The position numbers and the translations under genes were made by a program. A stretch of 32,000 bases of DNA from Sinorhizobium meliloti (GTDB taxonomy: Bacteria; Pseudomonadota; Alphaproteobacteria; Rhizobiales; Rhizobiaceae), in contig NZ_JAGIOS010000003.1 of NCBI RefSeq assembly GCF_017876815.1, positions 750,001 through 782,000 on the forward strand, read 5' to 3'. The notes under the pieces were generated by a model. It was given only the letters and a program-made list of their open reading frames with translations, was not told the origin of the DNA and ran no database searches. Each line of letters starts with the position of its first letter. The first letter of the stretch is position 1. Positions 12,895 to 28,358 of this stretch are shown piece after piece.

Positions 12895-12908
12895 TTGATC
12901 CACATCAA
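12895..12908. promoter_or_regulatory. perfect FNR/FixK(CRP-family) box TTGAT-N4-ATCAA
   Basis: TTGATCCACATCAA, extended to the 8+8 palindrome CCATTGAT-CCAC-ATCAATGG (12892-12911). Lies in a 300-bp intergenic region, about 90 bp upstream of ATG 12991. Confidence 0.55.
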
Positions 12909-12990: not shown

Positions 12991-14751
12991 ATGGTACACG
13001 CAGACCAACAGGGCGTCCCGGTCGACCCCGCAACTGCTCTACCCACCGAGGCGGAAGTTCTTGCGCAACTTGATCGAATCCGATTCAGCACCGAATTCGA
13101 TGCGCCGGAACGAGCCCGCCAATTCCTGGCCTATGTCGTCGGGGAGACGATTGCAGGCCGTGCCGATCGTATAAAGGCCTATTCAATAGCAACCGAAGTC
13201 TTCGGTCGAGATTCTTCCTTCGACGCTCAAACGGATCCGGCCGTGCGGATTGAAGCTGCCCGTATTCGACGCGCGCTCGAACGCTACTATCTGGTCGAGG
13301 GCCACAACGACCCGCTCATAATAAACATGCCGAAAGGCGCCTACGTACCGACGTTCGAAAGGCGCATCAAAGTGCATACTGAACCTGACCCCGGCCTCTT
13401 CGTGAGCGTCAGACGCAATTCGCCCTTCGGGAGCTCTCGGCAGCCATGGGCGTGGGTCGCGATCGCGGCGCTTGCCTTTGCCCTTGGTAGTCTGGCGGCA
13501 AACGCCCTGCTTCGTTCTATTACCCCGGCGGAGAGCGAGGATATGGCCGGATTCCGGCCAAACATCCCGAAACTCGCTGTGATGCCCTTTGAGGATCTTA
13601 CCGGAACACCGCACTCGGCGATGATAACACGAGGGTTCACGGACGAGGTCGTCGACAAAATTGCCAGATTCAAGGAGATCATTGTCGTCAGCCGAGAAAA
13701 ACTCGATGGCTCACCTGATCAGGCCGACGCCCCGGCTTATGCGCTGGAGGGGCGGGTTCGGCTCGACGGCGAAAAGCTTCGACTTGCAATAAGACTCGTA
13801 CAGCGGTCCGACGGGTCGGTGGTGTGGGCGAACAACTATGACGAAAGTCTTGCGACGCATAAGATTATCGCGTTGCAGGAAAAAGCCGCCGCCGCCGTGG
13901 CGACTGCTGTGGCACAACCCTATGGCGTCGTTTTCCAGGCGAACGCCGTGCGATTTACGCGCTCGGTTCCCGACGATTGGGAAGCATATGCGTGCACCTT
14001 GGCCTATTACGGCTATCGCAGCAACTTGAGCCCGCTAACGCATTCGTCGGTTCAAGAATGCCTGCAGCAAGCGACCCGACAGTTTCCAAACTACGCGACG
14101 GCTTGGGCACTTTTGTCGATGACCTATATCGACGAGCTCCGTTTCCAGTATCGTCTCGAGCGATCATCTCCGATTTCGCTGGAACACGCGGTCGCGGCAG
14201 CGGCGCGCGCCGTAGAACTGGATTCCCAGGACGTCCGTGCCCTGCAGGCGGAGATGCTCACCTTGTTCTTCCGTGGCGAAGTCGACGCGGCCTTGGCTGT
14301 CGGCGCGCGCGCCTTCGCGATCAATCCCAACGACACTGAACTTGCCGGTGAGTATGGTTTCCGGCGCGCCCTTTCCGGTCAATGGCGTTCAGGCTGCGAA
14401 CTTGTATCGCAAACTGTGGAGCGGAACCCCGGCCCGGTGGGATACTTCGAGGCGGCCTTGGCCATCTGCTCCTACATCGAGAGCGATTACGTGGCCGCCG
14501 AGCGATGGGCGCGCTTGGCTGACCTTCGCGCCAATCCCATTTACCGGGTCATATTGCTTGCCATTCTTGGGAAACTCGGCAAAGAGGAGCAAGCAAAGGA
14601 GGAACAGAATTGGTTGGAAACAAACGTTCCGGGCTTCCTCGAAAACATCCGAAAGGAGATCGCCTTGCGGATTCGTCGTCCTGAAGACCAGCAGCATTTC
14701 ATCGAAGGTTTGCGCGAGGCGGGTGTAACGATTCCGGAAGGTGGAGCGTAG
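12991..14751 (+). CDS. regulator-like protein: winged-helix-like N-domain, one TM segment, TolB-N-like module and TPR repeats
   Basis: 586 aa. N-terminal pattern RARQFLAYVVGETIAGRADRIKAYSIATEVFGR...DPAVRIEAARIRRALERYY...PKGAYVPTF. TM segment WAWVAIAALAFALGSLAANALL. LAVMPFEDLTG module. TPR-like C-terminal half. Confidence 0.7.
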   Translation: MVHADQQGVPVDPATALPTEAEVLAQLDRIRFSTEFDAPERARQFLAYVVGETIAGRADRIKAYSIATEVFGRDSSFDAQTDPAVRIEAARIRRALERYYLVEGHNDPLIINMPKGAYVPTFERRIKVHTEPDPGLFVSVRRNSPFGSSRQPWAWVAIAALAFALGSLAANALLRSITPAESEDMAGFRPNIPKLAVMPFEDLTGTPHSAMITRGFTDEVVDKIARFKEIIVVSREKLDGSPDQADAPAYALEGRVRLDGEKLRLAIRLVQRSDGSVVWANNYDESLATHKIIALQEKAAAAVATAVAQPYGVVFQANAVRFTRSVPDDWEAYACTLAYYGYRSNLSPLTHSSVQECLQQATRQFPNYATAWALLSMTYIDELRFQYRLERSSPISLEHAVAAAARAVELDSQDVRALQAEMLTLFFRGEVDAALAVGARAFAINPNDTELAGEYGFRRALSGQWRSGCELVSQTVERNPGPVGYFEAALAICSYIESDYVAAERWARLADLRANPIYRVILLAILGKLGKEEQAKEEQNWLETNVPGFLENIRKEIALRIRRPEDQQHFIEGLREAGVTIPEGGA

Positions 14752-15022: not shown

Positions 15023-17371
15023 CTAGCCGTAACGGCGGCTGCCGTTCACCTCTTTGCCTACAATTTCCCTTATGATAGTCAAAGTCTCTCTGGCGGCTTC
15101 CTTCGGCCGCAGAGCCGTATCGGCGACATTGCTCACAAGCTTCGTATTATTGTGGTCGATACCCTTCTCGGACCAGCGCTTTCCTTTGGCAACGGTAATA
15201 TAGACAGAATAAGCATGGTGCATCGTCCCGGGTCGTTCGCCGATAACATGGAGAATTCCCCTGAAGCTGTTTGGATCCGCGTTTTCGAACAGCATTTCGC
15301 CGATGCGGTAGCCGGCGCGCACCCGTCCGCTGGTGACCATGATGTTCTTGTCGCCCACGGTGACACCGGCCCCGGCAAGCAACCTGCGCATCTCCGCAAG
15401 GTAGGGTGCAAGATGCCCGTCGTCCATGATGGCTTTGGCGTTCAATCCATCCGAGATAACAACCTGGCCCTTCGGCAAGTCGTCTCCCCAGGAATCCCTT
15501 ATTCTTTCGATTTCCCGGATTCCTTCCGGGCTGAGCATTTCACCCGTATTGGGGTGGGCTATGTAATCGTTGCGGTCCTTGGACAAGGTGCGGACCGGCA
15601 CGACATCTGGTATGGCGGAAATGAACTCGGGAGTAAGTTCGGCCCAAAGAGATTGCTTCGCGTCGTCGTAGAGACCCTTCACCTTGGCTGCGAGCGTCGG
15701 ATTGAGATCCCATAAATTAGGCCCGTGGCCTGCGGCTAGGTCGACACCTCTCTCCTCAACTTCCCTCATCTTCTGGCGGCCCTCGGCGTAGATCGCGTCC
15801 TTGGACCGTCCATCCCCCTTGGCGAGCCGGTACTGGTAGTAGACCCAGAGAGGATCTGCGTAGTTCGCGGTATAGTTCCCGTCTCTACTCACGATGCCGA
15901 TTCGTTTGTAAAAGTCCCACATCGAGTCATTGACCTTGAAACCAAACTTGTCGCGCAATCGGACGTGATCCTGGAAGGATGTGGTGAGATAGCTCAGCAT
16001 CGGATCGTTCTTGGTAGGCAGCGCAATCAGATAAGCGGGATTAGCCGGCATGATCTGGTCCTGGCACCAATCCAGGTCGTCGAGGCTGACCGTCATGTGC
16101 AGGGTCGTGCAGATATCGAGGCCGATGGTGAGGCCATGGAGCTTGCCCATCACCATGTCCTCGAGACAGCACCGCACCAGTTGTTCCCGGCTCTTGAATA
16201 CTTCCGGTCCTATGAAGCCGGCGACATCGTTGACATGCAGCCATGCGCCTTCGGGCTGCACCTTCGCGAGTTCGATTCCGACCGCCCTGCTGAAGCCATA
16301 CTTCCGCGACTCAAGCACCATCATGTCGACGCCGTTCGCCGCACCGTTGGTGAACTCCGATCCCTGTCCGGTTTCGAAGTAAAGGCCATATCTCTCGCCC
16401 TTCTTCGCGCGGGCGTATTTCAGGATTTTCTCGTTCGTGATGTCGAAGATCTTGTTGCAGTCATCTGTTCCGGCAAGGCTCTGGAACATTGTGGAAACTG
16501 TTCCCGGAAAATTCGCGCCGGTTTCGGCCTGAACATCGATGTGCGCGAGCACGCACCATGGGATCACATCCGCCAGCCTGAACGTATCCACGATGTCCTT
16601 GAGCGCACGTTCAACCGCGGCCACGCTGCTTACAGTGCTGTCCACCGGGTTGGTGCCGATGACAATGTCGCCCGTCGCGTACGAGAAGGCATCGAAAACC
16701 TGCCAGGCGATGTCATCGGGATGGTCGGTGGGAGAATTCGGTTGGATACGGGCGCCCATATATCCCTTTGAACCCATCTTGGTGCCGGGCATCACATTGA
16801 AGATTTTCCGACTTAGGGAGATCAGCTCCTCATTGCTCATCAGTTTCGGAAGCAGGCCTATTGTGTCGCTCGTCAGGCCATCCATAATAGCTTTGATTTT
16901 TTCTTCTGTTTCGGTGATGAGAAATTTCGTCAACTGGCCCATCGTCCAGTCTTTGACATGTTCGTACTGGGCTTGGTCGGTGGTCTGCCAGATCAGTTTC
17001 TGGAGGTCGTCCTCAAACAGCGGGCGCTGGTAAAGATCCTTGATCTTGGTATTTGAAAGAAGAGCGCGAGCCTTTCTTCGACTTGCCTCATCCGCTGCTC
17101 CCACTCCAATCGCTTGATCTCCCTCTTTGAAATCATTCGCAGCGCCGATAACCTGCTGATAAGCAGCTTGATCGAAACCGCCTTTCTTTCTGCTGATGTA
17201 TGCAAAGACGTCCTCGCCGTGTTTCACATCATCGATTACGATGGTGAGTCCGCCAGAAGCGCTTTTGGCAGCGTGGCTGTAGCTTGCGAGCGTGGCGGTG
17301 GCTCCCGCCATTAACAGGAGATCTCGTCTGGTAAGCCCGTCACGCTGACGAGAGAACAAGCGCTTGCTCAT
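15023..17371 (-). CDS. ethanolamine ammonia-lyase-like EutB-EutC fusion protein with N-terminal twin-arginine signal
   Basis: 782 aa. Residues 1-37 read LTRRDLLLMAGATATLASYSHA/AK. Residues about 45-500 align with EutB (GVGAADE, YFETGQGSEF, VNDVAGFIGPEVF, LEDMVMGKLHGLTIGLDICTT, LSYLTTSFQDH). Residues about 620-770 align with EutC (VRTLSKDRNDYIAHP, QVVISDGLNAKAI, VIGERPG). AGGAAAGGAA RBS. Confidence 0.85.
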   Translation of the reverse strand: MSKRLFSRQRDGLTRRDLLLMAGATATLASYSHAAKSASGGLTIVIDDVKHGEDVFAYISRKKGGFDQAAYQQVIGAANDFKEGDQAIGVGAADEASRRKARALLSNTKIKDLYQRPLFEDDLQKLIWQTTDQAQYEHVKDWTMGQLTKFLITETEEKIKAIMDGLTSDTIGLLPKLMSNEELISLSRKIFNVMPGTKMGSKGYMGARIQPNSPTDHPDDIAWQVFDAFSYATGDIVIGTNPVDSTVSSVAAVERALKDIVDTFRLADVIPWCVLAHIDVQAETGANFPGTVSTMFQSLAGTDDCNKIFDITNEKILKYARAKKGERYGLYFETGQGSEFTNGAANGVDMMVLESRKYGFSRAVGIELAKVQPEGAWLHVNDVAGFIGPEVFKSREQLVRCCLEDMVMGKLHGLTIGLDICTTLHMTVSLDDLDWCQDQIMPANPAYLIALPTKNDPMLSYLTTSFQDHVRLRDKFGFKVNDSMWDFYKRIGIVSRDGNYTANYADPLWVYYQYRLAKGDGRSKDAIYAEGRQKMREVEERGVDLAAGHGPNLWDLNPTLAAKVKGLYDDAKQSLWAELTPEFISAIPDVVPVRTLSKDRNDYIAHPNTGEMLSPEGIREIERIRDSWGDDLPKGQVVISDGLNAKAIMDDGHLAPYLAEMRRLLAGAGVTVGDKNIMVTSGRVRAGYRIGEMLFENADPNSFRGILHVIGERPGTMHHAYSVYITVAKGKRWSEKGIDHNNTKLVSNVADTALRPKEAARETLTIIREIVGKEVNGSRRYG

Positions 17372-17493
17372 GGCCGATTCCTTTCCTGCAGGAGGTTCAG
17401 TGCAATGGGCAAATTTCGCACGAGCTTACCCCCGTGTGTCCAAAGCCCATACCGCAAATCCATGTCGTGCGTGCCACCGGAGTTTCAGCTGCG

Positions 17494-18813
17494 TCATAAC
17501 CATCCGCCCGTGAACCCGGCGCGCCTCAGTCCGACCACCAAGGGCTCGCACCGACGCATGACGTTCCACAAGAGGCCGGTCCTGTAGTTTTCGATCATGA
17601 GAACGACGGGACCCTGGTCGATGCCGAAGTGATAAGGAGTCACCCACCATCCCGTTTCGCTGCCTTCAACCGCAAAGGTCTGGTTGAAGGATGGCTTGAA
17701 GCCGTAGAGGCGTGTCATCCCCAGTTGCATCTGTGCAAAGTTCCAGACAGTCGGAATGACGATCTCCGGAGCGAACGGCAGGGACCCCACAACCACCCAG
17801 GGGGACACGGTGCCATCGTCCGGTCCAAAGGGCGCGCCGCGCGCGGTATAGTCGTAGAATTCCCTTTCCACGCCATCGACTGTTCTCTTGATCCAGCCGG
17901 GACCGTCGCTCGCGGTGAAGCCCCAGCAATGCTCGCCGTAACCGGCAAAGTTCAACGGGTTGCGGATGGCGTATTGCTGCTGGACGTAGGTCGCATGGCG
18001 GCTGTTCTGGAAGTAGTCGCTGTTGTGATCGCGCATGAATTCATCGCGGATCCCGCGAAAATCAATCCACATATGCGAGAGCTGGTGGGTGAAGAGTGGC
18101 CCCGAATAAAGCAGTTCGCGTCCGTAGATGTTTCTCCATTCGTAGCTCTCGGTATAGGCGGAATAGGCGTCCGGAGGCAGCGGATGGGTCCTTGATCCCA
18201 ATCCGAGAATGTAGAGCAGAAGCCCCTCGTCGTAACCACGCCAGCGATAGGGAATGAAGCCGCTTTCCGGTCGCCAGCCGTGGGTCAAGGTAGGCCCATG
18301 GTCACAGGCCCAGTTCCAGTCGGCCCGTTCGTAGAGCGTGTTGGCAAGCTGCCTAACCTCGACTTCGTCGGCGCTGTCGCCGTCGAAATAGGCGGCTACG
18401 GTCAAGGCTCCGGCAAACAGGAAGGCCGAATCGATCGTCGACAGCTCGCACTGCCAGACCCGCCGGCCGGTCTCGATGTCGAGGAAATGATAGAAGAAGC
18501 CCTTATAGCCAGACGCGTCGGGCTCCGGTCCCTGTGGGCAGGCCAGCAGGAATGCCAGCTTCTTTCGGGCGATCTTGGCCGCAAACTCGCGGATCAGGAC
18601 GCCGCGCTCGACGACCACGGGAAGCGCCGCGAGCGCCATGCCGATCGCGGCTATGCTCGCCGGAGCGTTGGGCTCGGTCTTGTCGCGAACGAGCCCGTTG
18701 TCCGGGTTGGTGCAATGGAGGTAATAGAGCAGCGTCGTGAACTGGAGCCGGCCGAGGTCCTGGTCGGTCGGCATGCGAGTGAGTTTCGGGGCGATCGATA
18801 GCATCTGTGACAT
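17494..18813 (-). CDS. GH144-like (putative glucoamylase-fold) endo-beta-1,2-glucanase family protein, no signal peptide
   Basis: 439 aa. Motifs remembered from the Glycoamylase/GH144 family: NGLVRDK, GFFYHFLD, STIDSAFLFAG, GWRPESGF, YDEGLLLYILGLGS, GIDQGPVVLMIENYRTGLLW. Starts 5 nt after the GH94 stop. Confidence 0.75.
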   Translation of the reverse strand: MSQMLSIAPKLTRMPTDQDLGRLQFTTLLYYLHCTNPDNGLVRDKTEPNAPASIAAIGMALAALPVVVERGVLIREFAAKIARKKLAFLLACPQGPEPDASGYKGFFYHFLDIETGRRVWQCELSTIDSAFLFAGALTVAAYFDGDSADEVEVRQLANTLYERADWNWACDHGPTLTHGWRPESGFIPYRWRGYDEGLLLYILGLGSRTHPLPPDAYSAYTESYEWRNIYGRELLYSGPLFTHQLSHMWIDFRGIRDEFMRDHNSDYFQNSRHATYVQQQYAIRNPLNFAGYGEHCWGFTASDGPGWIKRTVDGVEREFYDYTARGAPFGPDDGTVSPWVVVGSLPFAPEIVIPTVWNFAQMQLGMTRLYGFKPSFNQTFAVEGSETGWWVTPYHFGIDQGPVVLMIENYRTGLLWNVMRRCEPLVVGLRRAGFTGGWL

Positions 18814-18818
18814 AGTTT

Positions 18819-21800
18819 TTAGCCAAGGATCACTCGGACGTCGTGGAAACGACCATCATCTGCTAACGGTATCTTTGTGTCCGCCAGCGGTGTGTCATCA
18901 AGGAGAATCGAACGTACCCCGCGACAGACGCCGGCCGTGTTGTCCACGTGGATGCGGTATGTCGATGATCCGTGCCTGTACTTGATTTCGAACTCCGGCC
19001 AGTCGGTCGGTACACATGGTTCGATCAAAAGAAACTGGGCCTGTCGGCGAAAACCAAGGATCGCCTCGAGCGCGACGCGGTACAACCAGCCTGCTGCTCC
19101 CGTATACCATGTCCAGCCACCGCGGCCGGTATTTGGCGGTGCGCCGTAGACATCGGCGCTGACGACATATGGCTCGACCCTGTAATGCTGAGCGTCCTGC
19201 TTCGTCGTCGCGTGATTGATCGGATTCAGCAGGTTCCAAAGCTCCAGCGCCCGATCGCCGTCGCCTTGCAGCGCAGTGGCCAACACGACCCAGGCAGCCG
19301 CATGGGTATATTGCCCGCCATTTTCTCGTATGCCGGGAACATAGCCCTTGATGTAGCCCGGCTGCAGCGAACCCTTGTCGAATGGCGGATCGAACAACTG
19401 GATCAGCTTGTCCCGCCGGCGCACGAGTCTTTGATAGGCCGCGCTCATCGCCCTTGACGCGCGTTCATCGTCGGCTTCGCCAGAGATGACGGCCCAGGCC
19501 TGCGGAAGGGCATCGATCTGGCACTCGTCGTTCGAAGAGGAGCCGAGCGGCGTGCCGTCGTCAAAATAGGCGCGGCGGTACCAGGAGCCGTCCCAGGCGT
19601 GTTCTTCCAAGGCCGCGCGCAATCCTTCAGCACGTTCGCAGCACCAAGTTTCGCGGCTTTCGTCTCCACGCGATGACGCGATCGTCGCAAATGATTTCAG
19701 CACCGTCAGGAAGAACCAGCCGTTCCAAACACTTTCACCTCGGCCCTCGGCGCCGACCTTGTTCATGCCGTCGTTCCAGTCGCCCGTTCCCATGAGCGGC
19801 AAACCGTGCTGACCGAGCCGGAAACCGTATTCCAATGCACGGATACAGTGTTCGTAGAGCGTATCGGTCCGTTCGCTGACGTCCGGTTTGCCGAAGTCCT
19901 CCTCCTGGCCCTCCTTGAGAACGGGTGACGTGATGAAAGGCACCTGCTCATTAAGAAGGTCAACGTCGCCAGTCGCCGAAACGTAGTGGTGGACGACGAA
20001 AGGCAGAAAATAGAGGTCGTCGGTGATCCGTGTGCGCACGCCGACGCCGGACGGCGGGTGCCACCAATGTTGAACGTCTCCTTCCGTGAATTGACGCGCG
20101 GCTGCTCGCAGAATGTGTGCGCGTGTCTCGTCCGGCGCGCTGTGGACCAACGCCATCACATCCTGAAGCTGGTCCCTGAAACCGAATGCGCCCCCGGACT
20201 GATAAAAGCCAGACCGCCCCCAGACGCGACAAGCCAGGACCTGATACAGCAGCCAGCGATTCATCATCAGATTCATGCCGACGTCCGGTGTCGAGACCTG
20301 AACCGTATCCAGCAAATCGTTCCATTGACAGCATATGGCCGCGAAGCTTTCGCTCGCACGTTCCGGGTCGGCATAATCGCGCACAAGTCTGCGGACCTGC
20401 TCGTGGCTGCGGGCCTGCCCCAGAACAAAGATAACCTCCTTGCTCTCGCCGGGTGCCAGGGAGATCTCTACCATCAGCGCGGCACAGGGGTCCTGCAAGG
20501 GACCGAAGCTTTCTGCCAAATCGGTTCGCCCTAGGGCCGCTGGCGAGGACACTGAACCGTGTTTCCCAAGAAATTCCGCGCGGTCGGATGTCGTCGACCT
20601 CGGAGGCTGGCTGGCGGCCGCAAACGCAAGCCTTTTCGCGAAAACGCCGGCCCATGAGTTCCGTGCCATGATCGCATTCGATTTCGCATCGCGTTCGCAG
20701 ACGATTTGCATTGCCGTGTCGTCACGCTGGGTTCCCAACACCCATTCGGCGAAATACGTTGCGGTCAGATGGCGAGTTCGCGCGTCGTCATTGCTCAGCC
20801 TCAAATACATCACCTTGACCGGATCTTCCGGCGGAACATGCACCGTCAATTCGTGGTTCAGGCGCCGGCTACGGCTTACATAGCGACTATAGCCCTGGCC
20901 GTGATGAACAGTCACGAACGTTCCATGTCCAAGTGGCAGAGGCGTCGGAGTCCAGACGTCGCCGCTCTCCTCGTCCCTCAAGTAGATGACCTCGCCTGGC
21001 GTATCCGAAACGGGGTCGTTCGACCACGGCGTCAACCGGTTCATTTGGCTGTTGCCCCACCAGGTGTAGCCGAGCCCCGCCTCAGTCGTCAGGCAGCCGA
21101 AGTCCGGGTTGGCCAAAACATTGCTCCAAGGTGCGGGCGGCAAGGCCGGTGCTCGCGACTTAACGCCGTCCACCATGACGACATATTCGCGTCCCGAGGG
21201 GGTGAACCCCCCGAATCCGTTCCAATATAGCAAATCTTTAGTGGATGTGGTCGAAGCCGGCTCCGGGGGCTCTTCGCCCGTTTGAGCGGCCAGAATACGT
21301 GCAGGAAGTGATGCGGCGGGGGATTGCCGGTCGAACAGGCTTGCGAGAGGCCTGCCGCCATCCGGCAAGACGATCCGCGCTGCGGCCGTGATTGCATCCA
21401 GGTGATCGCTCGGGACCGTCGCTGCAGAAAGGACAAAGATTCCGCCTGGTTTGCCCAGCATTCCGGTTTGCGGGCCGGCTCGCAGATCTTTGGCAAGCCG
21501 CTCGGCACTACTCGCGCCACGCCTGTCATATAACGCAAGATCGAACAGCAGACCTCGGCGGCGGGCGAAGTCGTGCGCCATCCTCACTTCGCGAATGAGC
21601 GCGGCATCCCCGTCGCCATTCACGCGAACCAGCATGATTGGAAGATCACCGGAAATTCCGTGGGACCAAAGCGCTCCCCTATCCAGTGGATTTTTCTTCA
21701 GTGCCCTGGCCAATCGCATGGCCGGATTTGCAAACAGGATGCTCCCGGCAAGCTGGTTGAACAGCGACACGTCGCCGGGGGTTAAGTTCGAGCCCTGAAG

Positions 21801-22748
21801 CTCGCCTTGATACGCCTCCAGCGCTTCGGAGAAGGCGCGGTCCGCCCCCTCGATTGTCGAGTAGCGTTCGGCTATTTCCTGGGCCGCCTGTTGATTGTCC
21901 GTCGCTCCCGTGACAAAGGCGGCGCGCACCTTGGCTTTGGGTTTCAGATGGACAATCCTTTGCAGGCAGAAGATCGCATCGAGCACCGGCCCGGTCGACT
22001 TGGAAAGCATGGCACCTGGGTCCAGCATCGCGGGGTCAGCCGTCGTGCGGCCCCTTCCGAGGAATTTGAGCCGATCGGTCTCATGGGCGACTTCTGCCCG
22101 GATCTGTTGATCTGATGATGAAACATGGACGGCCCAGACGGGTGGCTCTGCCGCATCGCGCGGCCGGCGTCGCGCAAACAAAGCACCGGTCGCGTCATCG
22201 TGCTGCGTCTCCACGAAGAGCTTGGCAAAGGCCGGATGCGCCCTGTCCGCGCGGCGATCGTTCAGGCAGACCTCGGAATAGCTGGTAAGATCGAGGGTCC
22301 GCTCTCGTCCGCCATGGTTGACGACGGTAAGCTCACGCACTTCCGCGTCGGCATCCTGCGCGACGCAGACTTTCCAGGAGATTTCAATGTCTTCGGAACG
22401 ACAGGAGAACTCGGCCCGGTCTCCGTGAAAAGAGTGCGCGTAGCTGTTTGCAGGCTGGAAAACGGGTTGCTTGCCGATAGACCACACCGTTTTGTCCGCC
22501 TGGTCGCGGACGTAGCAAACCTGCCCCCAGCAATCTCGCGTGACATCTTCGCGCCACCGCGTGACGTCAAGGCTCCGCCAGATGGCACAACCCGCGCCTG
22601 CATCAGTAACCATGACGCTGTAACGGCCGTTGGAAAGCAGGGCGACGGCTGGGCCTGTATCCGCCAGCTCAGGCGAGCTGTCGTGTCTCGTCACCTCGGG
22701 CGGTCTGCGGCCTTGATTTGTTTTTGACATTGACGTTTCCCAGCTCAA
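18819..22748 (-). CDS. GH94-family glucan phosphorylase (NdvB/Cgs C-terminal-like; beta-1,2-oligoglucan phosphorylase-like), 1309 aa
   Basis: N-terminal LSNGRYSVMVTDAGAGCAIWRSLDVTRWREDVTRDCWG resembles the post-glycosyltransferase region of cyclic glucan synthases. The GH94 core has PPAPWSNVLANPDFG, GYTWWGNSQMNRLTPW, FGFRDQLQD, GDVQHWWHP, TGDWNDGMN and GESVWNGWF. No GT domain and no TM segments. Start is TTG 22748 or ATG 22730. Confidence 0.85.
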   Translation of the reverse strand: MSWETSMSKTNQGRRPPEVTRHDSSPELADTGPAVALLSNGRYSVMVTDAGAGCAIWRSLDVTRWREDVTRDCWGQVCYVRDQADKTVWSIGKQPVFQPANSYAHSFHGDRAEFSCRSEDIEISWKVCVAQDADAEVRELTVVNHGGRERTLDLTSYSEVCLNDRRADRAHPAFAKLFVETQHDDATGALFARRRPRDAAEPPVWAVHVSSSDQQIRAEVAHETDRLKFLGRGRTTADPAMLDPGAMLSKSTGPVLDAIFCLQRIVHLKPKAKVRAAFVTGATDNQQAAQEIAERYSTIEGADRAFSEALEAYQGELQGSNLTPGDVSLFNQLAGSILFANPAMRLARALKKNPLDRGALWSHGISGDLPIMLVRVNGDGDAALIREVRMAHDFARRRGLLFDLALYDRRGASSAERLAKDLRAGPQTGMLGKPGGIFVLSAATVPSDHLDAITAAARIVLPDGGRPLASLFDRQSPAASLPARILAAQTGEEPPEPASTTSTKDLLYWNGFGGFTPSGREYVVMVDGVKSRAPALPPAPWSNVLANPDFGCLTTEAGLGYTWWGNSQMNRLTPWSNDPVSDTPGEVIYLRDEESGDVWTPTPLPLGHGTFVTVHHGQGYSRYVSRSRRLNHELTVHVPPEDPVKVMYLRLSNDDARTRHLTATYFAEWVLGTQRDDTAMQIVCERDAKSNAIMARNSWAGVFAKRLAFAAASQPPRSTTSDRAEFLGKHGSVSSPAALGRTDLAESFGPLQDPCAALMVEISLAPGESKEVIFVLGQARSHEQVRRLVRDYADPERASESFAAICCQWNDLLDTVQVSTPDVGMNLMMNRWLLYQVLACRVWGRSGFYQSGGAFGFRDQLQDVMALVHSAPDETRAHILRAAARQFTEGDVQHWWHPPSGVGVRTRITDDLYFLPFVVHHYVSATGDVDLLNEQVPFITSPVLKEGQEEDFGKPDVSERTDTLYEHCIRALEYGFRLGQHGLPLMGTGDWNDGMNKVGAEGRGESVWNGWFFLTVLKSFATIASSRGDESRETWCCERAEGLRAALEEHAWDGSWYRRAYFDDGTPLGSSSNDECQIDALPQAWAVISGEADDERASRAMSAAYQRLVRRRDKLIQLFDPPFDKGSLQPGYIKGYVPGIRENGGQYTHAAAWVVLATALQGDGDRALELWNLLNPINHATTKQDAQHYRVEPYVVSADVYGAPPNTGRGGWTWYTGAAGWLYRVALEAILGFRRQAQFLLIEPCVPTDWPEFEIKYRHGSSTYRIHVDNTAGVCRGVRSILLDDTPLADTKIPLADDGRFHDVRVILG

Positions 22749-22813
22749 CCGACGACATGGACTTCGAAAGCAGGACCATCACGGTAACCGCCGCCGGAGC
22801 CTCCGCGGGCTAG

Positions 22814-22847
22814 ATCATTTCATGTCGCACCGAAACGGTGAAATGAT
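22814..22847. repeat. inverted repeat ATCATTTCA-N16-TGAAATGAT in the AT-rich gap upstream of the GH94 gene
   Basis: Read directly. An inner CACCG-AAA-CGGTG mini-hairpin overlaps the right arm. A half-matching TTGT-N6-GCAA motif lies at 22856-22869. Confidence 0.5.
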
Positions 22848-22904
22848 TTAACCCTTTGTAATCATGCAACTAATAAAATGCCGCACACGTTTCCCGGAAT
22901 TGCT

Positions 22905-23474
22905 CTAGCCAGCGACGTGTCCGTTCCATACTCTCACTGCGGGTACCTCGTGGTAGTAGGTGAGGACGCTTAACGTGCCGGTATTCAGGAGAAAATGCTG
23001 CCCTGCGCGTGGTGGCAGGCCGATCCATCGCGCTGCAAGCACGCGCAGCACGTGCCCATGCGCAAATAGCGCAACGTCGCCCTTCGCAGCCCGGACGCGC
23101 GTCACGACCTGATCCACACGAGCACCCACCTGACTGGGCGTCTCGCCGCCGGGGCAACCATCCCGGAAAATCAACCAGCCCGGCCTCTTCGCCTGGATTT
23201 GCTGGGGTGTATGCCCCTCGTATTCGCCGTAGTTCCACTCCATCAAGCTTCGGTCGCCGAGGGCGGCGGCGCCGAGACCCACCAAGTCACAAGTCTCCCG
23301 TGCCCGCTGCAGCGGGCTTACGAGAACGAGCGCGAACGTGTGCCGAGCCAACACCGGCCGCATCCTTTCCGCCTGTCGTCGTCCGTTGTCGGTCAAGGGG
23401 ACGTCTGTTGTGCCCGTGTGTTGCCCGCTCAGACTCCACTCGGTCTCCCCATGCCTGATCACGAATACGTTCAC
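22905..23474 (-). CDS. histidine phosphatase (phosphoglycerate mutase-like) family protein
   Basis: 189 aa. Has VIRHGETEWS (RHG motif), SPLQRARET and FAHGHVLR. GTG start with a GGGAGGG RBS, 16 nt after the phosphoketolase stop. Confidence 0.85.
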   Translation of the reverse strand: MNVFVIRHGETEWSLSGQHTGTTDVPLTDNGRRQAERMRPVLARHTFALVLVSPLQRARETCDLVGLGAAALGDRSLMEWNYGEYEGHTPQQIQAKRPGWLIFRDGCPGGETPSQVGARVDQVVTRVRAAKGDVALFAHGHVLRVLAARWIGLPPRAGQHFLLNTGTLSVLTYYHEVPAVRVWNGHVAG

Positions 23475-23490
23475 GTCCAGCCCTCCCGGC

Positions 23491-25953
23491 TCAGACGTTG
23501 TCCCCTTCCGTAGAGGTTTTCCGGGACACTGCTGTCGTGTCTTTCACGCCCCACTTCCATCCGCTGATCGCAAGCATGTCGTCGCCATGCTTTTCGATAT
23601 ATTCGCGATGCTCGATTAGCTTCTCGTGAATTGCCTGCTTGAAATAGGCGGCACGGGCACCGAGTTGCGGCAGCCGATCGATGACATCCTCGACGAGGTG
23701 GAACCGGTCGAGCTCGTTCAGGACCACCATGTCGAACGGGGTGGTCGTCGTGCCTTCCTCCTTGTAACCGCGCACGTGCAGGTTGCCGTGATTTTTTCTG
23801 CGATAGGTGAACCGATGGATCAGCCACGGATAACCGTGGAAGGCGAAGATGATCGGCTTGTCCCTTGTGAAGAAGGCGTCGAAATCACGGTCCGATAGCC
23901 CATGCGGATGCTCCTCCGCAGGTTGCAGCTTCATCAGGTTGACGACATTGATCACCCGCACCTTCAGCTCGGGCAGGTGTTCGCGGAGCAGTTGCACCGC
24001 CGCAAGTGTTTCGAGGGTCGGGACGTCGCCGCAACAGGCCATAACGACATCGGGCTCGCTGCCCTTGTCGCTGCTCGCCCAATCCCAGATGCTGAGGCCC
24101 ATGGCGCAGTGCCTAACGGCCTCGCTCATCGTCAGCCATTGCGGCGCAGGCTGTTTTCCGGCGACGACCACGTTGACGTAGTCGCGACTGCGCAGGCAGT
24201 GGTCCGTGACGCACAGCAGGGTGTTGGCGTCCGGCGGCAGGTAGACGCGGATCACGTCCGCCTTTTTATTGACGACATGGTCGATGAAGCCAGGGTCCTG
24301 ATGGCTGAAGCCGTTGTGATCCTGTCGCCAGACATGCGAACTGAGGAAATAGTTCAGTGAGCCGATGGGTCTGCGCCACGGGATTTCGCCACACACCTTG
24401 AGCCACTTGGCATGCTGGTTGAACATTGAGTCGATGATGTGGATGAAGGCTTCGTAGCAGGAGAAGAAGCCGTGGCGGCCTGTCAGCAGGTAGCCTTCCA
24501 GCCATCCCTGGCACTGGTGCTCGCTCAGTACTTCCATGATGCGGCCGTCCGGCGAGAGATGGTCGTCCTCCGGATAGATATCCGCCATGTAGCAGCGATC
24601 GGTTACCTCAAGCACATCCTGCCAGCGGTTGGAGTTGTTCTCGTCCGGACTGAACAGCCGGAAGTTCTTGCTCTCCAGGTTCGCCTTCATCACGTCGCGC
24701 AGGAACTTGCCCATGGCGCGGGCTGACTCGGCCATAGTCGCGCCAGGGCTGGTTACCTCCACGGCGTAGTCCCTGAAATTCGGCATCTTCAAATCACGCA
24801 AAAGCAACCCGCCGTTGGCGTGGGGGTTGTCGCTCATCCGGCGGTGGCCCGCCGGAGCGAGCGATGCAATTTCAGTCGTGAGCCGACCGGTCTCGTCGAA
24901 AAGCTCCTCGGGCCGATAGCTTTTCATCCATTGTTCGAGAATGCGGATATGCTCCGGCTTGTCCATCTCGCCCATGGGCACCTGATGCGATCGCCAGTAG
25001 TCCTCGCATTTCTTGCCATCGATCTCCGGCGGGCACGTCCAGCCCTTTGGCGTCCGAAAGACAATCATCGGCCATGCCGGGCGCTTGAGATTGCCGTTCG
25101 TGCGGGCATCGGCCCAGATTTCCTTGATCTTGCCGACCACAGTGTCGAGCACGCCTGCGAGCTTCTGGTGAACATCCTCGGGATCACGGCCCTCGACAAA
25201 ATATGGCCTGTATCCCATCCCCTCGAAGAACTTGCGCAATTCCTCCTCGGGAATGCGGGCGAGGAAGCAGGGGTTGGCAATCTTATAGCCGTTCAGGTGA
25301 AGGATCGGCAGCACACAGCCGTCGCGGGCAGGATTGAGGAATTTGTTGCTTTGCCAGCCGGTCGCGAGCGGACCGGTCTCGGCCTCCCCGTCGCCAACGA
25401 CACAGGCGATGATCAGATCGGGATTGTCGAATGCCGCGCCATAGGCATGGCTGAGCGCGTATCCGAGTTCGCCGCCCTCGTGGATGCTGCCGGGTGTCTC
25501 GGGCGCGACATGGCTCGGTATGCCGCCGGGGAAGCTGAACTGCTTGAACAGCCGCTTCATCCCTTCCGTATCCTCGCTGATATTCGGATAGAACTCACTA
25601 TAGGTGCCTTCGAGATAAGCGTGCGCCACCAATGACGGTCCGCCGTGGCCGGGGCCGATGACGTAGATCATGTTGAGATCGTCGCGTTTGATGACCCGGT
25701 TCAGATGCACATAGAGCATGTTGAGACCGGGCGACGTCCCCCAGTGGCCGAGCAGTCGCGGCTTGATATGCTCGCGCTTCAGGGATTCCCGCAATAGCGG
25801 ATTGTCGAGCAGATATATCTGGCCGACTGAGAGATAGTTGGAAGCTCGCCAGTAGGCGTCCATCAAGCGGAGTTCCGCGGATGACAGCACGGCTGCTACA
25901 TGTGACTTGCCTGATGTTGTCTCGTTCATCGCTGCCGTTTCAAGCGAAGTCAT
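23491..25953 (-). CDS. xfp: phosphoketolase (xylulose-5-P/fructose-6-P phosphoketolase)
   Basis: About 820 aa. Has [42 protein letters not shown] and GDGEAETGP. Start trimmed to ATG 25953 (MTSLE...), which is preceded by GGGAGG. Confidence 0.92.
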
Positions 25954-25995
25954 CTGCACCTCCCGATCATAATGACATTACTGAAATCTCTCCGG

Positions 25996-26009
25996 CTTGC
26001 TGTGATGCA
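25996..26009. promoter_or_regulatory. candidate FixK2-type box TTGC-N6-GCAA between adh and xfp
   Basis: TTGCTGTGATGCAA (part of the palindrome GCTTGC-N6-GCAAGC) fits TTG(A/C)-N6-(T/G)CAA. A minus-strand TATGAT (25966-25971) lies about 34 nt from the box centre. It could equally be a small hairpin after the adh stop. Confidence 0.3.
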
Positions 26010-26011
26010 AG

Positions 26012-27040
26012 CTATTGCAATCGCACGACTATGCGACCGTCGATCTTGCCCGCTTCCATGCGATGAAAGATGTCGTTGATGTTCTCGAGGCTCTCCCACG
26101 AGAAATAAGGCTTTACCTTGCCTTCCGCCGCGAACACGAGCGATTCCTCAAGGTCTTGACGGGTGCCCACGATTGATCCACGCACGGTTATGCGTTTCAG
26201 GACGGTCTCGAAAACCGGCAAGGACATCATTCCGGGGGGAAGGCCGACCAAGACCATCGTACCTTTCGACCGCAGGAAACCAAAGGCCTGTTCCATGGCG
26301 GCGGGAGAGACAGCGGTCACGAGCACTCCGTGAACGCCGCCGCTCGTGGCCTTCTGTACCTGCTCGATTGCATCTTCTGACTTGCCGTTTATTGCGATGT
26401 CGGCGCCAAGTTGCTTAGCCAGCGCCAGCTTGTCTTCGAATATGTCGGCGGCCACTACGTGCATTCCCATTGCCTTGGCATATTGCACCGCCATGTGGCC
26501 GAGACCCCCGACGCCCGAGATGGCCACCCATTCACCGGGACGGACTTCCGTTTCCTTCAGCCCCTTGTAGACGGTCACTCCCGCGCAGAGAACGGGCGCG
26601 GCGGCTCCGAATTCCAACCCATCAGGAATCTTTCCGACGAACTCGGGATCTGCCAGTCCGAACTCCGCGAAGGTGCCGTTCACTGAGTACCCGGTGTTCG
26701 ATTGCGAAGCGCACAGCGTTTCCCAACCGGTCCGGCAATAGGTACAGTAACCGCAAGCGGTGTGGAGCCATGGCACCCCAACCTTGTCACCTTCTTTCAC
26801 TCTCCTCACGCCGGCGCCCACGGCTGAGACGAAGCCAACACCCTCATGCCCTGGAATAAAGGGCGGGGCCGGCTTAACGGGCCAATCGCCGTTTGCCGCA
26901 TGCAGATCGGTATGGCACACGCCCGTCGCTTCATATTTTACCAGGACCTGCCCCGCGCCAGGCGTTGGGACTTCCATCTCCTCTATGGTCAGCGGAGCGC
27001 GGAACTGGCGTACGACAGCCGCCTTCATTGTCTGTGCCAT
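26012..27040 (-). CDS. zinc-dependent alcohol dehydrogenase (AdhA/AdhP type)
   Basis: Trimmed to ATG 27040 (MAQTMKAAVV...) behind GGAGGGG. Has GVCHTDLH, GHEGVG, the structural-zinc region CGYCTYCRTGWETLC and GVGGLGH. Confidence 0.9.
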   Translation of the reverse strand: MAQTMKAAVVRQFRAPLTIEEMEVPTPGAGQVLVKYEATGVCHTDLHAANGDWPVKPAPPFIPGHEGVGFVSAVGAGVRRVKEGDKVGVPWLHTACGYCTYCRTGWETLCASQSNTGYSVNGTFAEFGLADPEFVGKIPDGLEFGAAAPVLCAGVTVYKGLKETEVRPGEWVAISGVGGLGHMAVQYAKAMGMHVVAADIFEDKLALAKQLGADIAINGKSEDAIEQVQKATSGGVHGVLVTAVSPAAMEQAFGFLRSKGTMVLVGLPPGMMSLPVFETVLKRITVRGSIVGTRQDLEESLVFAAEGKVKPYFSWESLENINDIFHRMEAGKIDGRIVVRLQ

Positions 27041-27119
27041 TTGCATTCCCCTCCATCTCATACGGCTTCAGAGACACCTCTCAGGGGGGTGCCGAGAGTT
27101 TGCGTTGTGAACGGCAGCG

Positions 27120-27791
27120 CTATTGAGTGTAGGGATCTGGAAAATGCTCCACGATGCCCCTGACCCCGTGGACACTCTCAGCCACGATCCGCGCGGCCCT
27201 GCGACAAGCGGCCGTCTCGACTTGGCCCCAAAAGTGCACGATCCCCTCGGTGACCGTGACAGTCACGTCCAGTTCTTCCAGACCCGTGTTTTCGCCGAGG
27301 CGAACAAGGATGCTGCGTCGAATGGCTTCGTCGCCCGCTGCTGTTTCGTCTGGCTTCGTTGAAAAAATTGCCTGCAGCAGGTCGGCGCGGCTGACGATGC
27401 CGACCAGTTCCCCATCGCGCATTACGGGGATGCGCTTGATACCGCGTTCCTGCATGAGCCCTGCAACGCGCGCAAGGGGCGCTTCCTCCTCAATGGTTAC
27501 GGGGTTGGCCGTCATGACGTCGCCGACGCGCCACGAGCATCGCCTGATGAAGGCGTTCGCCCTGTCATCGGGATCGATCGCCATGTCCGCCATCAACACG
27601 GATGCTCCACTGCAGAGTTCCGTCCGCCGGATCAGGTCGCCCTCACTGATGACGCCGAGCAAGCGCCCATCGTCGTCAACGACCGGGACGCCGCTTACGT
27701 GGTGGTCGAACATCAGCTTGGCTGCCTGTCTAACGCTGTTGTCAGGCGACAGTTTGACAACCTTTGTCGTCATCACATCCTTGACAAGCAT
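27120..27791 (-). CDS. CBS-pair plus BON domain protein
   Basis: 223 aa. Two CBS motifs (VKDVMTTKVV...VSGVPVVDDDGRLLGVISEGDL and VGDVMTANPV...IKRIPVMRDGELVGIVSRADL). C-terminal BON-like LDVTVTVTEGIVHFWGQVET...VHGVRGIVEHF. Confidence 0.85.
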   Translation of the reverse strand: MLVKDVMTTKVVKLSPDNSVRQAAKLMFDHHVSGVPVVDDDGRLLGVISEGDLIRRTELCSGASVLMADMAIDPDDRANAFIRRCSWRVGDVMTANPVTIEEEAPLARVAGLMQERGIKRIPVMRDGELVGIVSRADLLQAIFSTKPDETAAGDEAIRRSILVRLGENTGLEELDVTVTVTEGIVHFWGQVETAACRRAARIVAESVHGVRGIVEHFPDPYTQ

Positions 27792-28061: not shown

Positions 28062-28075
28062 TTGACCGGAGTCAA
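28062..28075. promoter_or_regulatory. FNR/FixK-type box TTGA-N6-TCAA
   Basis: TTGACCGGAGTCAA (arms ATTGA/TCAAT) lies in about 570 bp with no convincing ORF. A minus-strand -10-like CTTATC (28036-28041) lies about 30 nt from the box centre, so the orientation fits the CBS-adh-xfp gene string. Confidence 0.5.
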
Positions 28076-28140: not shown

Positions 28141-28358
28141 GTTGCCAGATGCTCCCCGACAAACTCGCCCAGCGTCTGACACAGCAGAGTGCTGCCATGC
28201 GGATCGGGTATGTCCATCAAGCCTCGCCTAGTTCAGTCCGCCCGGAAGCGCACCCGGTCCGCTTGGATTTGACGGAGATCAATGCTCAAAAGGCAGTGTT
28301 GGTGTATGTGCGATCAGAGACTGGGACCGCCCTCCGTTCAAGCCGAGGAGTAGACCGA

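Follow-up and report, generated by a model that had tools for sequence, protein, structure and literature searches.

A predicted single-chain ethanolamine ammonia-lyase of Sinorhizobium meliloti with a conserved export leader and a probable periplasmic site of action

Background

In a 32,000-nucleotide (32 kb) stretch of the Sinorhizobium meliloti genome (contig NZ_JAGIOS010000003.1, positions 750,001 to 782,000; hereafter the window), a string of same-strand genes runs from a CBS-BON gene through genes for the alcohol dehydrogenase AdhP, a phosphoketolase, a histidine phosphatase, and GH94 and GH144-like proteins to eutBC, its last member. The eutBC gene encodes EutB and EutC, the two subunits of ethanolamine ammonia-lyase (EAL), as one polypeptide behind a predicted twin-arginine translocation (Tat) signal peptide, and relatives of its product carry either Tat or general secretory (Sec) leaders. 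EAL is an adenosylcobalamin (AdoCbl) radical enzyme. To our knowledge, every characterised AdoCbl-dependent isomerase or eliminase is cytoplasmic or housed in a microcompartment, near an adenosyltransferase and an ATP-driven reactivase. We propose, from comparison of sequences, that the S. meliloti protein is a radical B12 enzyme of this kind, known only from the cell interior, that probably works in the periplasm.

Results

The eutBC gene and its distribution among strains

The eutBC open reading frame (ORF) is preceded by a Shine-Dalgarno-like sequence (Table 1). A terminator-like hairpin follows its stop codon, so eutBC is likely the final gene of its transcription unit. Its product matches an S. 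meliloti protein annotated EutB at 100% identity. The window belongs to an SM11-type pSymA megaplasmid. Sixteen S. meliloti pSymA-type records carry the gene (those of SM11, BL225C, Rm41, GR4 and RU11/001 among them), and its DNA is identical in the pSymA-type megaplasmids of SM11, BL225C, Rm41, RU11/001 and others. The pSymA of strain 1021, although included in the searched collection, was not among the matches. Since it is missing from this model strain, eutBC is an accessory gene, and its absence from strain 1021 may explain why it is unstudied.

Table 1. Features of the eutBC region. Coordinates are those of the window unless a related locus (L number) is named.
Feature	Coordinates	Strand	Basis
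eutBC, 782-aa precursor of single-chain EutB-EutC	15023..17371	-	ORF with ATG start; Pfam and NCBIfam matches
Shine-Dalgarno-like sequence AGGAAAGGAA, purine-rich	17378..17387	-	6-16 nt 5' of the ATG; read from sequence
Predicted signal peptide, residues 1 to ~35 (n-region, twin-arginine motif, h-region, SHA/AKS cleavage region)	17267..17371	-	
Twin-arginine motif T14-R-R-D-L-L-L20	17312..17332	-	Sequence; RR unchanged in relatives, flanks vary
Family-specific N-terminal extension of the mature protein, residues 42-69, ...TIVIDDVKHGEDVFAYISRKKGGFDQ...	17165..17248	-	
EutB-like TIM-barrel catalytic domain, residues 70-501	15869..17164	-	Pfam, E 1.7e-140
Conserved helical connector, residues 502-561	15689..15868	-	Predicted local distance difference test (pLDDT) ~85-98; many invariant columns
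EutC-like cobalamin-side domain, residues 562-777	15041..15688	-	Pfam, E 1.8e-30
Terminator-like hairpin, ~60 nt past the eutBC stop codon	14951..14965	-	Consensus scan only
GH144-like gene (PF10091), directly upstream of eutBC	17494-18813	-	Pfam
GH94 gene, 1309 aa, two supersandwich domains	18819-22748	-	Pfam
AdhP alcohol dehydrogenase (zinc-dependent type, not EutG)	26012..27061	-	NCBIfam equivalog, 376.8 (cut-off 344)
String of genes upstream of eutBC	17494-27791	-	
586-aa ORF, convergent with eutBC	12991-14751	+	
FixK/FNR-type TTGA-N6-TCAA palindromes	12895-12908, 28062-28075, 28269-28282		
Conserved cluster around Sec-type eutBC	L082 9113-22274; L084 9118-22292; L063 8989-15068		
APC-family permease directly downstream of flavobacterial eutBC	L080 13507-14781; L081 12368-13651		

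Domain architecture, active site and predicted fold

The claim that a full EutB-like and a EutC-like domain share one chain, made in an earlier note on this DNA (the original prediction), is confirmed by Pfam, with 469 bits for EutB (PF06751, cut-off 25) and 106.5 bits for EutC (PF05985, cut-off 25.8). The EutB part also exceeds the cut-off of the NCBIfam EutB subfamily model NF011649 (632.7 against 554 bits). The EutC part lies far under that of the NCBIfam equivalog NF003971 (79.2 against 230), which marks the light-chain part as divergent.

In an alignment to the Escherichia coli heavy chain (3abo_A), R208, Q210, N241, E333 and D419 fall on R160, Q162, N193, E287 and D362, the substrate-binding residues of EAL in the 3ABO work. 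Loss of EutB active-site residues had been named as grounds for abandoning the original prediction; all five are retained. They are invariant in a 60-member family alignment and also hold in the leaderless sister clades and eukaryotic homologues, with Q210 and N241 altered solely in one divergent clade (P0129). VISDGLNA, GRVRAGY and IGERPG, the motifs of the light chain, can be aligned with E. coli EutC (3any_B).

The final AlphaFold2 model, built from a 60-sequence alignment with identity down to 53%, has a mean pLDDT of 85.4 and a predicted template modelling score of 0.83; it supersedes an initial run on 37 sequences of at least 68% identity (pLDDT 67, poor active-site loops). Only residues 1-41 (the leader region), 453-464 and 776-782 fall below a pLDDT of 50. 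Foldseek superposes the model on 3abo_A with a template modelling (TM) score of 0.88 and a root-mean-square deviation of 2.6 A, and on the light chains 3abo_B/D, 5ysr_D and 7xrm_B with TM scores of 0.72-0.76, aligning 251-268 model columns to light chains of 248-253 residues. The linker of about 110 residues that had been described between the domains does not hold up, as the two Pfam envelopes lie 60 residues apart (502-561) and this stretch is conserved and confidently helical, with helices in this region predicted at 507-517, 524-540 and 558-575. On the model, the connector is most likely the N-terminal arm of EutC rather than a flexible linker. These comparisons support an intact EAL-type enzyme.

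The protein is only ~30% identical to characterised EutB, its counterpart of the E. coli pocket residue M392 is Ile, and the family motif NDVAGFIGPEVF stands at the position of canonical EutB NTVVGFIGPEYL. Together with the divergent EutC, these features favour an alternative in which the exported cobamide enzyme has as its physiological substrate not free ethanolamine but another periplasmic vicinal amino alcohol, such as 2-amino-1-propanol, 1-amino-2-propanol, serinol or a head group that envelope lipids or glucans release. The invariance of all five residues that bind ethanolamine through its amino and hydroxyl groups argues against it, and the gene neighbourhood bears on it further below.

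A Tat leader conserved across three phyla

Residues 13-20 of the precursor read L-T-R-R-D-L-L-L and are followed by 18 uncharged residues and by S-H-A-A-K-S, which offers two candidate signal peptidase I sites, one after S-H-A and one after A-K-S, each with Ala in the next position. The Tat assignment was judged by motif rules and by conservation across relatives. The leader has both parts of a Tat-type signal, namely an S/T-R-R-x-F-L-K-type motif and an uncharged, moderately hydrophobic stretch of at least ~13 residues. A scan of a genome collection recovered 80 related loci, from Rhizobiaceae, Bradyrhizobium, Microvirga, Geminicoccaceae, Bacteroidota and many Thermodesulfobacteriota (including Smithella, Syntrophaceae and Geobacteraceae). 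The canonical Tat leader of the original prediction is borne out by this survey of the combined Tat, EutB and EutC architecture: 72 of the ~76 loci with a complete 5' end keep S/T-R-R-x-F/L-L, 14-26 uncharged residues and an AxA-type site, and these loci span Alphaproteobacteria, Thermodesulfobacteriota and Bacteroidota. The cleavage site of most relatives is AxA, often A-R/K-A, and directly after the leader comes a conserved mature N-terminus, ...I.I.(E/D)VKPGEDVFAYI.R.KG.FDQ. The extension at residues 42-69, which in members with a leader follows on the cleavage site, is conserved throughout Tat-type, Sec-type and eukaryotic proteins and is missing from canonical EutB.

It had also been stated that no alternative start removes the leader. 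In-frame starts do exist at codon 21 (ATG) and codon 49 (GTG), and some database entries for relatives (761-765-aa versions) begin at an internal Met. Both facts lend themselves to a reading of the protein as an ordinary cytoplasmic EAL whose extension is a relic, a membrane tether facing inwards or the result of an internal translation start. The pattern of substitution speaks otherwise. Among 37 close relatives, mean pairwise differences near the RR pair are 0.34, 0.19 and 0.56 at codon positions 1, 2 and 3, and further upstream they are a flat 0.73 at all three. This coding-type pattern around RR indicates that the full leader is translated. The RR pair, the h-region and the AxA site have moreover been kept in those 72 loci of three phyla while other leader positions drifted, a further point against the cytoplasmic reading.

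Sec-type relatives and repeated leader switching

About 30-40 of the ~265 full-length database members carry classical Sec signal peptides, and these are 60-82% identical to Tat-type members. Two examples are MKKKLLKIIVAGIICLGFISLSTYCEA, cut before ITIKEVKPGEDVF, and MKGRITRVLLAGLVGLGVLSLSVWASA, cut before ITIHDVKPGEDVF. Sec leaders are expected to be shorter and more hydrophobic than Tat leaders, and the two groups differ accordingly: the length before the GEDVF anchor is 37 residues in Sec-type and 50 in Tat-type members, and the maximal 12-residue Kyte-Doolittle score is 2.72 against 2.02 (p = 4e-16). Both kinds end directly before the same conserved mature N-terminus. A Cys recurs two residues before the mature end of Sec leaders, and a lipoprotein reading was rejected on the grounds that the preceding residues are unlike a lipobox; judged by eye, signal peptidase I cleavage after C-G-A is more likely.

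In a neighbour-joining tree of mature regions, which was quick, rough and without support values, Sec forms are scattered over several separate places among Tat forms, and by parsimony the leader state (Tat, Sec or none) changed 12 times. The keeping of two different export signals on one enzyme implies selection on extracytoplasmic location and not on the Tat route. Repeated replacement by Sec peptides at the same cut point is also hard to explain for a cytoplasmic enzyme unless export is selected. Extracytoplasmic location is thus our best reading of the conserved export signal.

The Sec-type relatives also bear on the proposal that cobalamin is loaded before Tat export. It is plausible for S. 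meliloti, but the existence of Sec-type members means that loading before export is not obligatory for the family. Sec-type enzymes would have to fold and acquire their cofactor after export. An adenosylated cobamide would then be acquired in the periplasm, which implies a periplasmic AdoCbl pool or a delivery route.

Leaderless and divergent members

Leaderless fused EutBC proteins, 44-50% identical to the query, occur in the protists Paratrimastix pyriformis, Anaeramoeba flamelloides and Andalucia godoyi. In this set (P0123, P0126, P0127) the family N-terminal segment is present in P0123 and P0126 and partly recognisable in P0127. Other eukaryote-looking representatives (P0122, P0147) have C2 domains or long low-complexity inserts. 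From the leaderless fused forms (P0140, P0141 and the protists) it follows that the fusion is older than export or independent of it.

The P0129 side clade, from metagenome-assembled genomes of Pseudomonadota, combines a Tat motif with a lipobox-like ATSGC and has degenerate active-site and cofactor motifs (RLRPN for RIQPN, AGDAA for GTNPV, GQRPD for GERPG). Its sequence suggests that it may be a pseudo-enzyme or have changed function.

Gene neighbourhood in the window and across related loci

As the original prediction stated, eutA, transporter (eutH/eat) and shell genes are missing, and so is eutR: neither the scanned ORFs of the window nor the annotated record showed any of them. No eutE, eutD or eutG was found near eutBC in the window, where AdhP is the sole related gene; a phosphate acetyltransferase (Pta) gene lies just past the window's end in the annotated record. 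The beta-1,2-glucan enzymes reported as neighbours are indeed there, GH144-like and GH94 lying directly upstream on the same strand. Inspection of their N-termini revealed no signal peptides on the proteins of the upstream string, AdhP, GH144-like and GH94 included.

Neighbours were compared by clustering the ORFs of 81 loci, for which gene calls in related loci were crude longest-ORF calls. GH144-like genes occur in 16 of the 81 loci and GH94 in 19; these two, the phosphoketolase and CBS-BON (16-19 loci each) are confined to Sinorhizobium, Ensifer, Rhizobium and Mesorhizobium types. The position of eutBC directly downstream of glucan-related genes in Sinorhizobium would suit an amino alcohol from the envelope, and a substrate released from envelope glucans had been put forward. 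Being specific to one lineage and without signal peptides, that is, cytoplasmic, the glucan genes are rejected as a clue to the substrate.

The most widely conserved eutBC neighbour is the AdhP cluster, found in 32 of the 81 loci; in 15 of them it immediately precedes eutBC on the same strand. It is the recurrent aldehyde-handling neighbour of the alphaproteobacteria. In several loci Pta and acetate kinase (AckA) lie nearby. In anaerobes other enzymes take its place: locus L086 has the order aldehyde:ferredoxin oxidoreductase (AOR), iron-dependent alcohol dehydrogenase (Fe-ADH), eutBC (Tat type) and a TorF-like putative porin, and AOR is close upstream of eutBC in L063 and L064. The swapping of one aldehyde-handling enzyme for another at a conserved position indicates that the product is an aldehyde, namely acetaldehyde, and acetaldehyde as the product in turn suggests that the substrate is ethanolamine or a molecule very similar to it. 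The recurrence of AdhP, AOR, Fe-ADH and Pta/AckA thus speaks against a different amino alcohol, as does a syntenic cluster in Pelobacter carbinolicus, a species that includes fermenters of ethanolamine and encodes no further EAL. We consider another physiological substrate unlikely, if a serious alternative.

A TorF-family putative porin adjoins eutBC in eight loci (L043, L055, L063, L064, L065, L082, L084 and L086). In the Sec-type L063, L082 and L084 the conserved order is TorF-like porin, eutBC, a 258-aa membrane protein, an ATP-binding cassette (ABC) ATPase, Peripla_BP_2, FecCD, MoxR (AAA_3), DUF58 and VWA. A BtuCDF-type ABC transporter thus stands beside Sec-type members; it and the porin recur in some anaerobes and suit an enzyme sited in the periplasm. 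Systems of the MoxR/VWA kind are often involved in maturing or reactivating enzymes that carry a cofactor. The delivery route mentioned above possibly consists of these adjacent BtuF-like, ABC and MoxR-VWA genes; a cobamide supply to Sec-type enzymes by the BtuF-like and ABC proteins is speculation. The same transporter genes could be taken to mean that the exported protein is no catalyst at all, that it is an EAL-derived periplasmic cobamide-binding or scavenging protein that holds B12 for uptake, and the P0129 clade, with its Tat leader, lipobox and degenerate active-site motifs, would suit that role. We regard it as very improbable for the S. meliloti protein, in which, as in the great majority of the family, the substrate-binding residues and their surrounding motifs are invariant, as would be surprising in a protein that only binds, and aldehyde-handling neighbours imply turnover.

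Some further features of these regions are noted here. DUF3300 and DUF2950 secreted-protein genes adjoin eutBC in L039, L044, L053 and L060; in L044 and L053 they come after a resistance-nodulation-division (RND) efflux set, an AI-2E-family transporter gene lies just downstream, and L053 also has a Na+/H+ exchanger gene there. The string upstream of eutBC in the window is conserved as a block in Sinorhizobium and Ensifer and in some Rhizobium and Mesorhizobium. It looks like a cytoplasmic path that would turn beta-1,2-glucan into acetyl-phosphate by way of phosphoketolase and might serve survival under hypoxia or by fermentation. The 586-aa ORF convergent with eutBC has a hydrophobic segment at about residues 165-185, a weak tetratricopeptide repeat (TPR) match and weak similarity to HilA/EilA-type regulators; it adjoins eutBC in 3 loci only and may encode a ToxR-like membrane-bound regulator. 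Three FixK/FNR-type palindromes occur in the window against 0.34 expected, one of them 83 bp upstream of this ORF and two upstream of CBS-BON, the head of the string that ends in eutBC. Such boxes, which hint at low-oxygen control, lie upstream of the operon head in only ~4 of 75 loci (including L057, L036 and L037). Control of the RpoE2 type (GGAAC-N15-18-CGTT) was rejected, the motif being at chance level in the window with none near the operon. At the gathering thresholds of Rfam, neither the window nor any of six related loci yielded a cobalamin riboswitch.

Discussion

We interpret eutBC as encoding a single-chain AdoCbl-dependent ethanolamine (vicinal amino-alcohol) ammonia-lyase that would work outside the cytoplasm, and put the probability of this reading at roughly 0.6. 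Domain make-up, catalytic residues, fold, export signal and neighbours were compared directly; from them we infer the following course of export, the state of the cofactor during it, the substrate and the fate of the products.

The precursor would fold in the cytoplasm, probably with AdoCbl bound at the intramolecular EutB/EutC interface. S. meliloti makes cobalamin. The fusion would help to keep the cofactor enclosed while the protein was exported by Tat as a monomer or small oligomer, and SHA/AKS would be where the leader is cleaved. Once in the periplasm, the enzyme would convert protonated, non-permeant ethanolamine, possibly from plant or soil material or from turnover of phosphatidylethanolamine head groups, to NH3 and acetaldehyde, both of which could cross the inner membrane without a transporter. 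Cytoplasmic AdhP would then reduce the acetaldehyde, a step that would provide an outlet for electrons should the island be expressed under low oxygen, and the ammonia would be assimilated; in anaerobic relatives AOR and Fe-ADH would handle the acetaldehyde. The periplasm would so take over the roles of the ethanolamine permease and of the microcompartment in classical eut systems.

Several points weigh against this interpretation. AdoCbl enzymes inactivate by mechanism and normally need an ATP-dependent reactivase (EutA), there is no ATP in the periplasm, and no substitute for the reactivase is evident in the window. Canonical EAL is an (alpha-beta)6 complex of ~500 kDa, too large for Tat, so that either export precedes assembly or the quaternary state differs. 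The Ile in place of M392 and the divergent EutC mean that the preference for substrate or cofactor could differ. Neighbour conservation is patchy, many Smithella-type loci having no informative neighbours. The flavobacterial leader (Formosa, Mangrovimonas) reads TRQEFLK with a single Arg, and an APC-family permease gene lies directly downstream of flavobacterial eutBC (L080, L081; Table 1); either the enzyme stays in the cytoplasm in this lineage, as may be the case, or the permease possibly transports another compound. Being a generic APC-family protein under all equivalog cut-offs, the permease cannot be called one for ethanolamine. A few members (the P0315 group) seemingly have no leader and may be cytoplasmic, and the sister clades and eukaryotic homologues are leaderless.

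Much of this would equally serve the cytoplasmic reading raised by the alternative starts, since an ATP-dependent reactivase could not work in the periplasm, leaderless relatives exist, and the flavobacterial proteins pair a single Arg with an adjacent permease gene. Set against it are the conserved and coding leader, its repeated exchange for Sec peptides, and the window, in which no ethanolamine permease was found. We judge a cytoplasmic S. meliloti enzyme improbable and favour the exported ammonia-lyase.

More tentatively, and at somewhat less than even odds, the family as a whole may be a widespread group of extracytoplasmic AdoCbl radical enzymes in soil alphaproteobacteria, anaerobic Thermodesulfobacteriota and Bacteroidota, with repeated switching between Tat and Sec and with the periplasm as their compartment. 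If the reading is right, how AdoCbl is delivered and kept adenosylated outside the cell becomes a question, as do the survival of inactivation without ATP and the carriage of AdoCbl holoenzymes by Tat. These genes are abundant in soil and sediment metagenomes, yet annotation pipelines label them merely 'EutB'. SM11-type S. meliloti is genetically tractable, so the question is open to direct testing.

Comparison with known systems

Both domains and their folds are shared with EutB and EutC of E. coli, Salmonella and Listeria (3ABO, 5YSR, 2QEZ). Given the same folds, substrate residues and light-chain motifs, the same chemistry is expected, an AdoCbl radical 1,2-amino shift that yields acetaldehyde and NH3. 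The S. meliloti protein differs from the classical enzymes in being one polypeptide with an extra N-terminal segment and a predicted cleavable export signal, and its gene differs from classical eut systems in having no EutA, shell, EutH/Eat or EutR gene nearby. In organisms with eut microcompartments EutC is a separate chain with an N-terminal microcompartment-targeting peptide, whereas S. meliloti EutC is fused to the C-terminus of EutB.

The reductive dehalogenases RdhA/PceA are a precedent for a folded, cofactor-loaded corrinoid enzyme exported by Tat to the outer face of the membrane. They have an unrelated fold, use a non-adenosylated corrinoid with Fe-S clusters and catalyse no AdoCbl radical rearrangement; neither Pfam nor Foldseek gave an RdhA match for the S. 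meliloti protein. Methylamine dehydrogenase and the copper amine oxidase TynA set a precedent for the location of the reaction, as they deaminate a charged amine in the periplasm to NH3 and an aldehyde that enters the cell. Unlike EAL, they perform oxidative chemistry with tryptophan tryptophylquinone (TTQ), or with topaquinone (TPQ) and copper, on unrelated folds.

The fusion itself is already known. EutBC-1 and EutBC-2 of Pelobacter (Syntrophotalea) carbinolicus were described as 'an unusual fusion' (Aklujkar et al. 2012, PMC3543383); fused eutBC are the only EAL genes of that organism, eutA is missing and strains grow on ethanolamine (PMC3543383). That paper assumes uptake and a cytoplasmic enzyme and leaves a signal peptide unmentioned (PMC3543383). 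The cluster it reports runs conserved hypothetical gene, in part a substrate-binding protein (SBP) gene, eutBC, conserved hypothetical gene, ABC ATPase, SBP, permease, AAA_3, DUF58/VWA and more VWA (PMC3543383), and the gene order Pcar_0469-Pcar_0457 in its supplementary table is that around the Sec-type L082 and L084. On this matching order, and by synteny only, the Pelobacter genes (Pcar_0491, Pcar_0467) probably belong to the leader-bearing family; no Pelobacter protein was among the best 120 matches of a search with a Geobacteraceae member. Of the whole architecture, the fusion had been described before, and no description of an export signal on it was found in the searchable literature.

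An EAL that works without a metabolosome is known from Acinetobacter baumannii; it is a two-subunit, cytoplasmic enzyme, and the title and abstract of the article on it mention no export signal (PMC9426561). The openly searchable full-text literature yielded no exported or periplasmic EAL nor any periplasmic AdoCbl enzyme, in agreement with the original prediction that no characterised exported EAL is known. If the S. meliloti enzyme is indeed periplasmic, it would represent a third solution to the problem of acetaldehyde and ethanolamine uptake, beside microcompartments and the plain cytoplasmic EAL.

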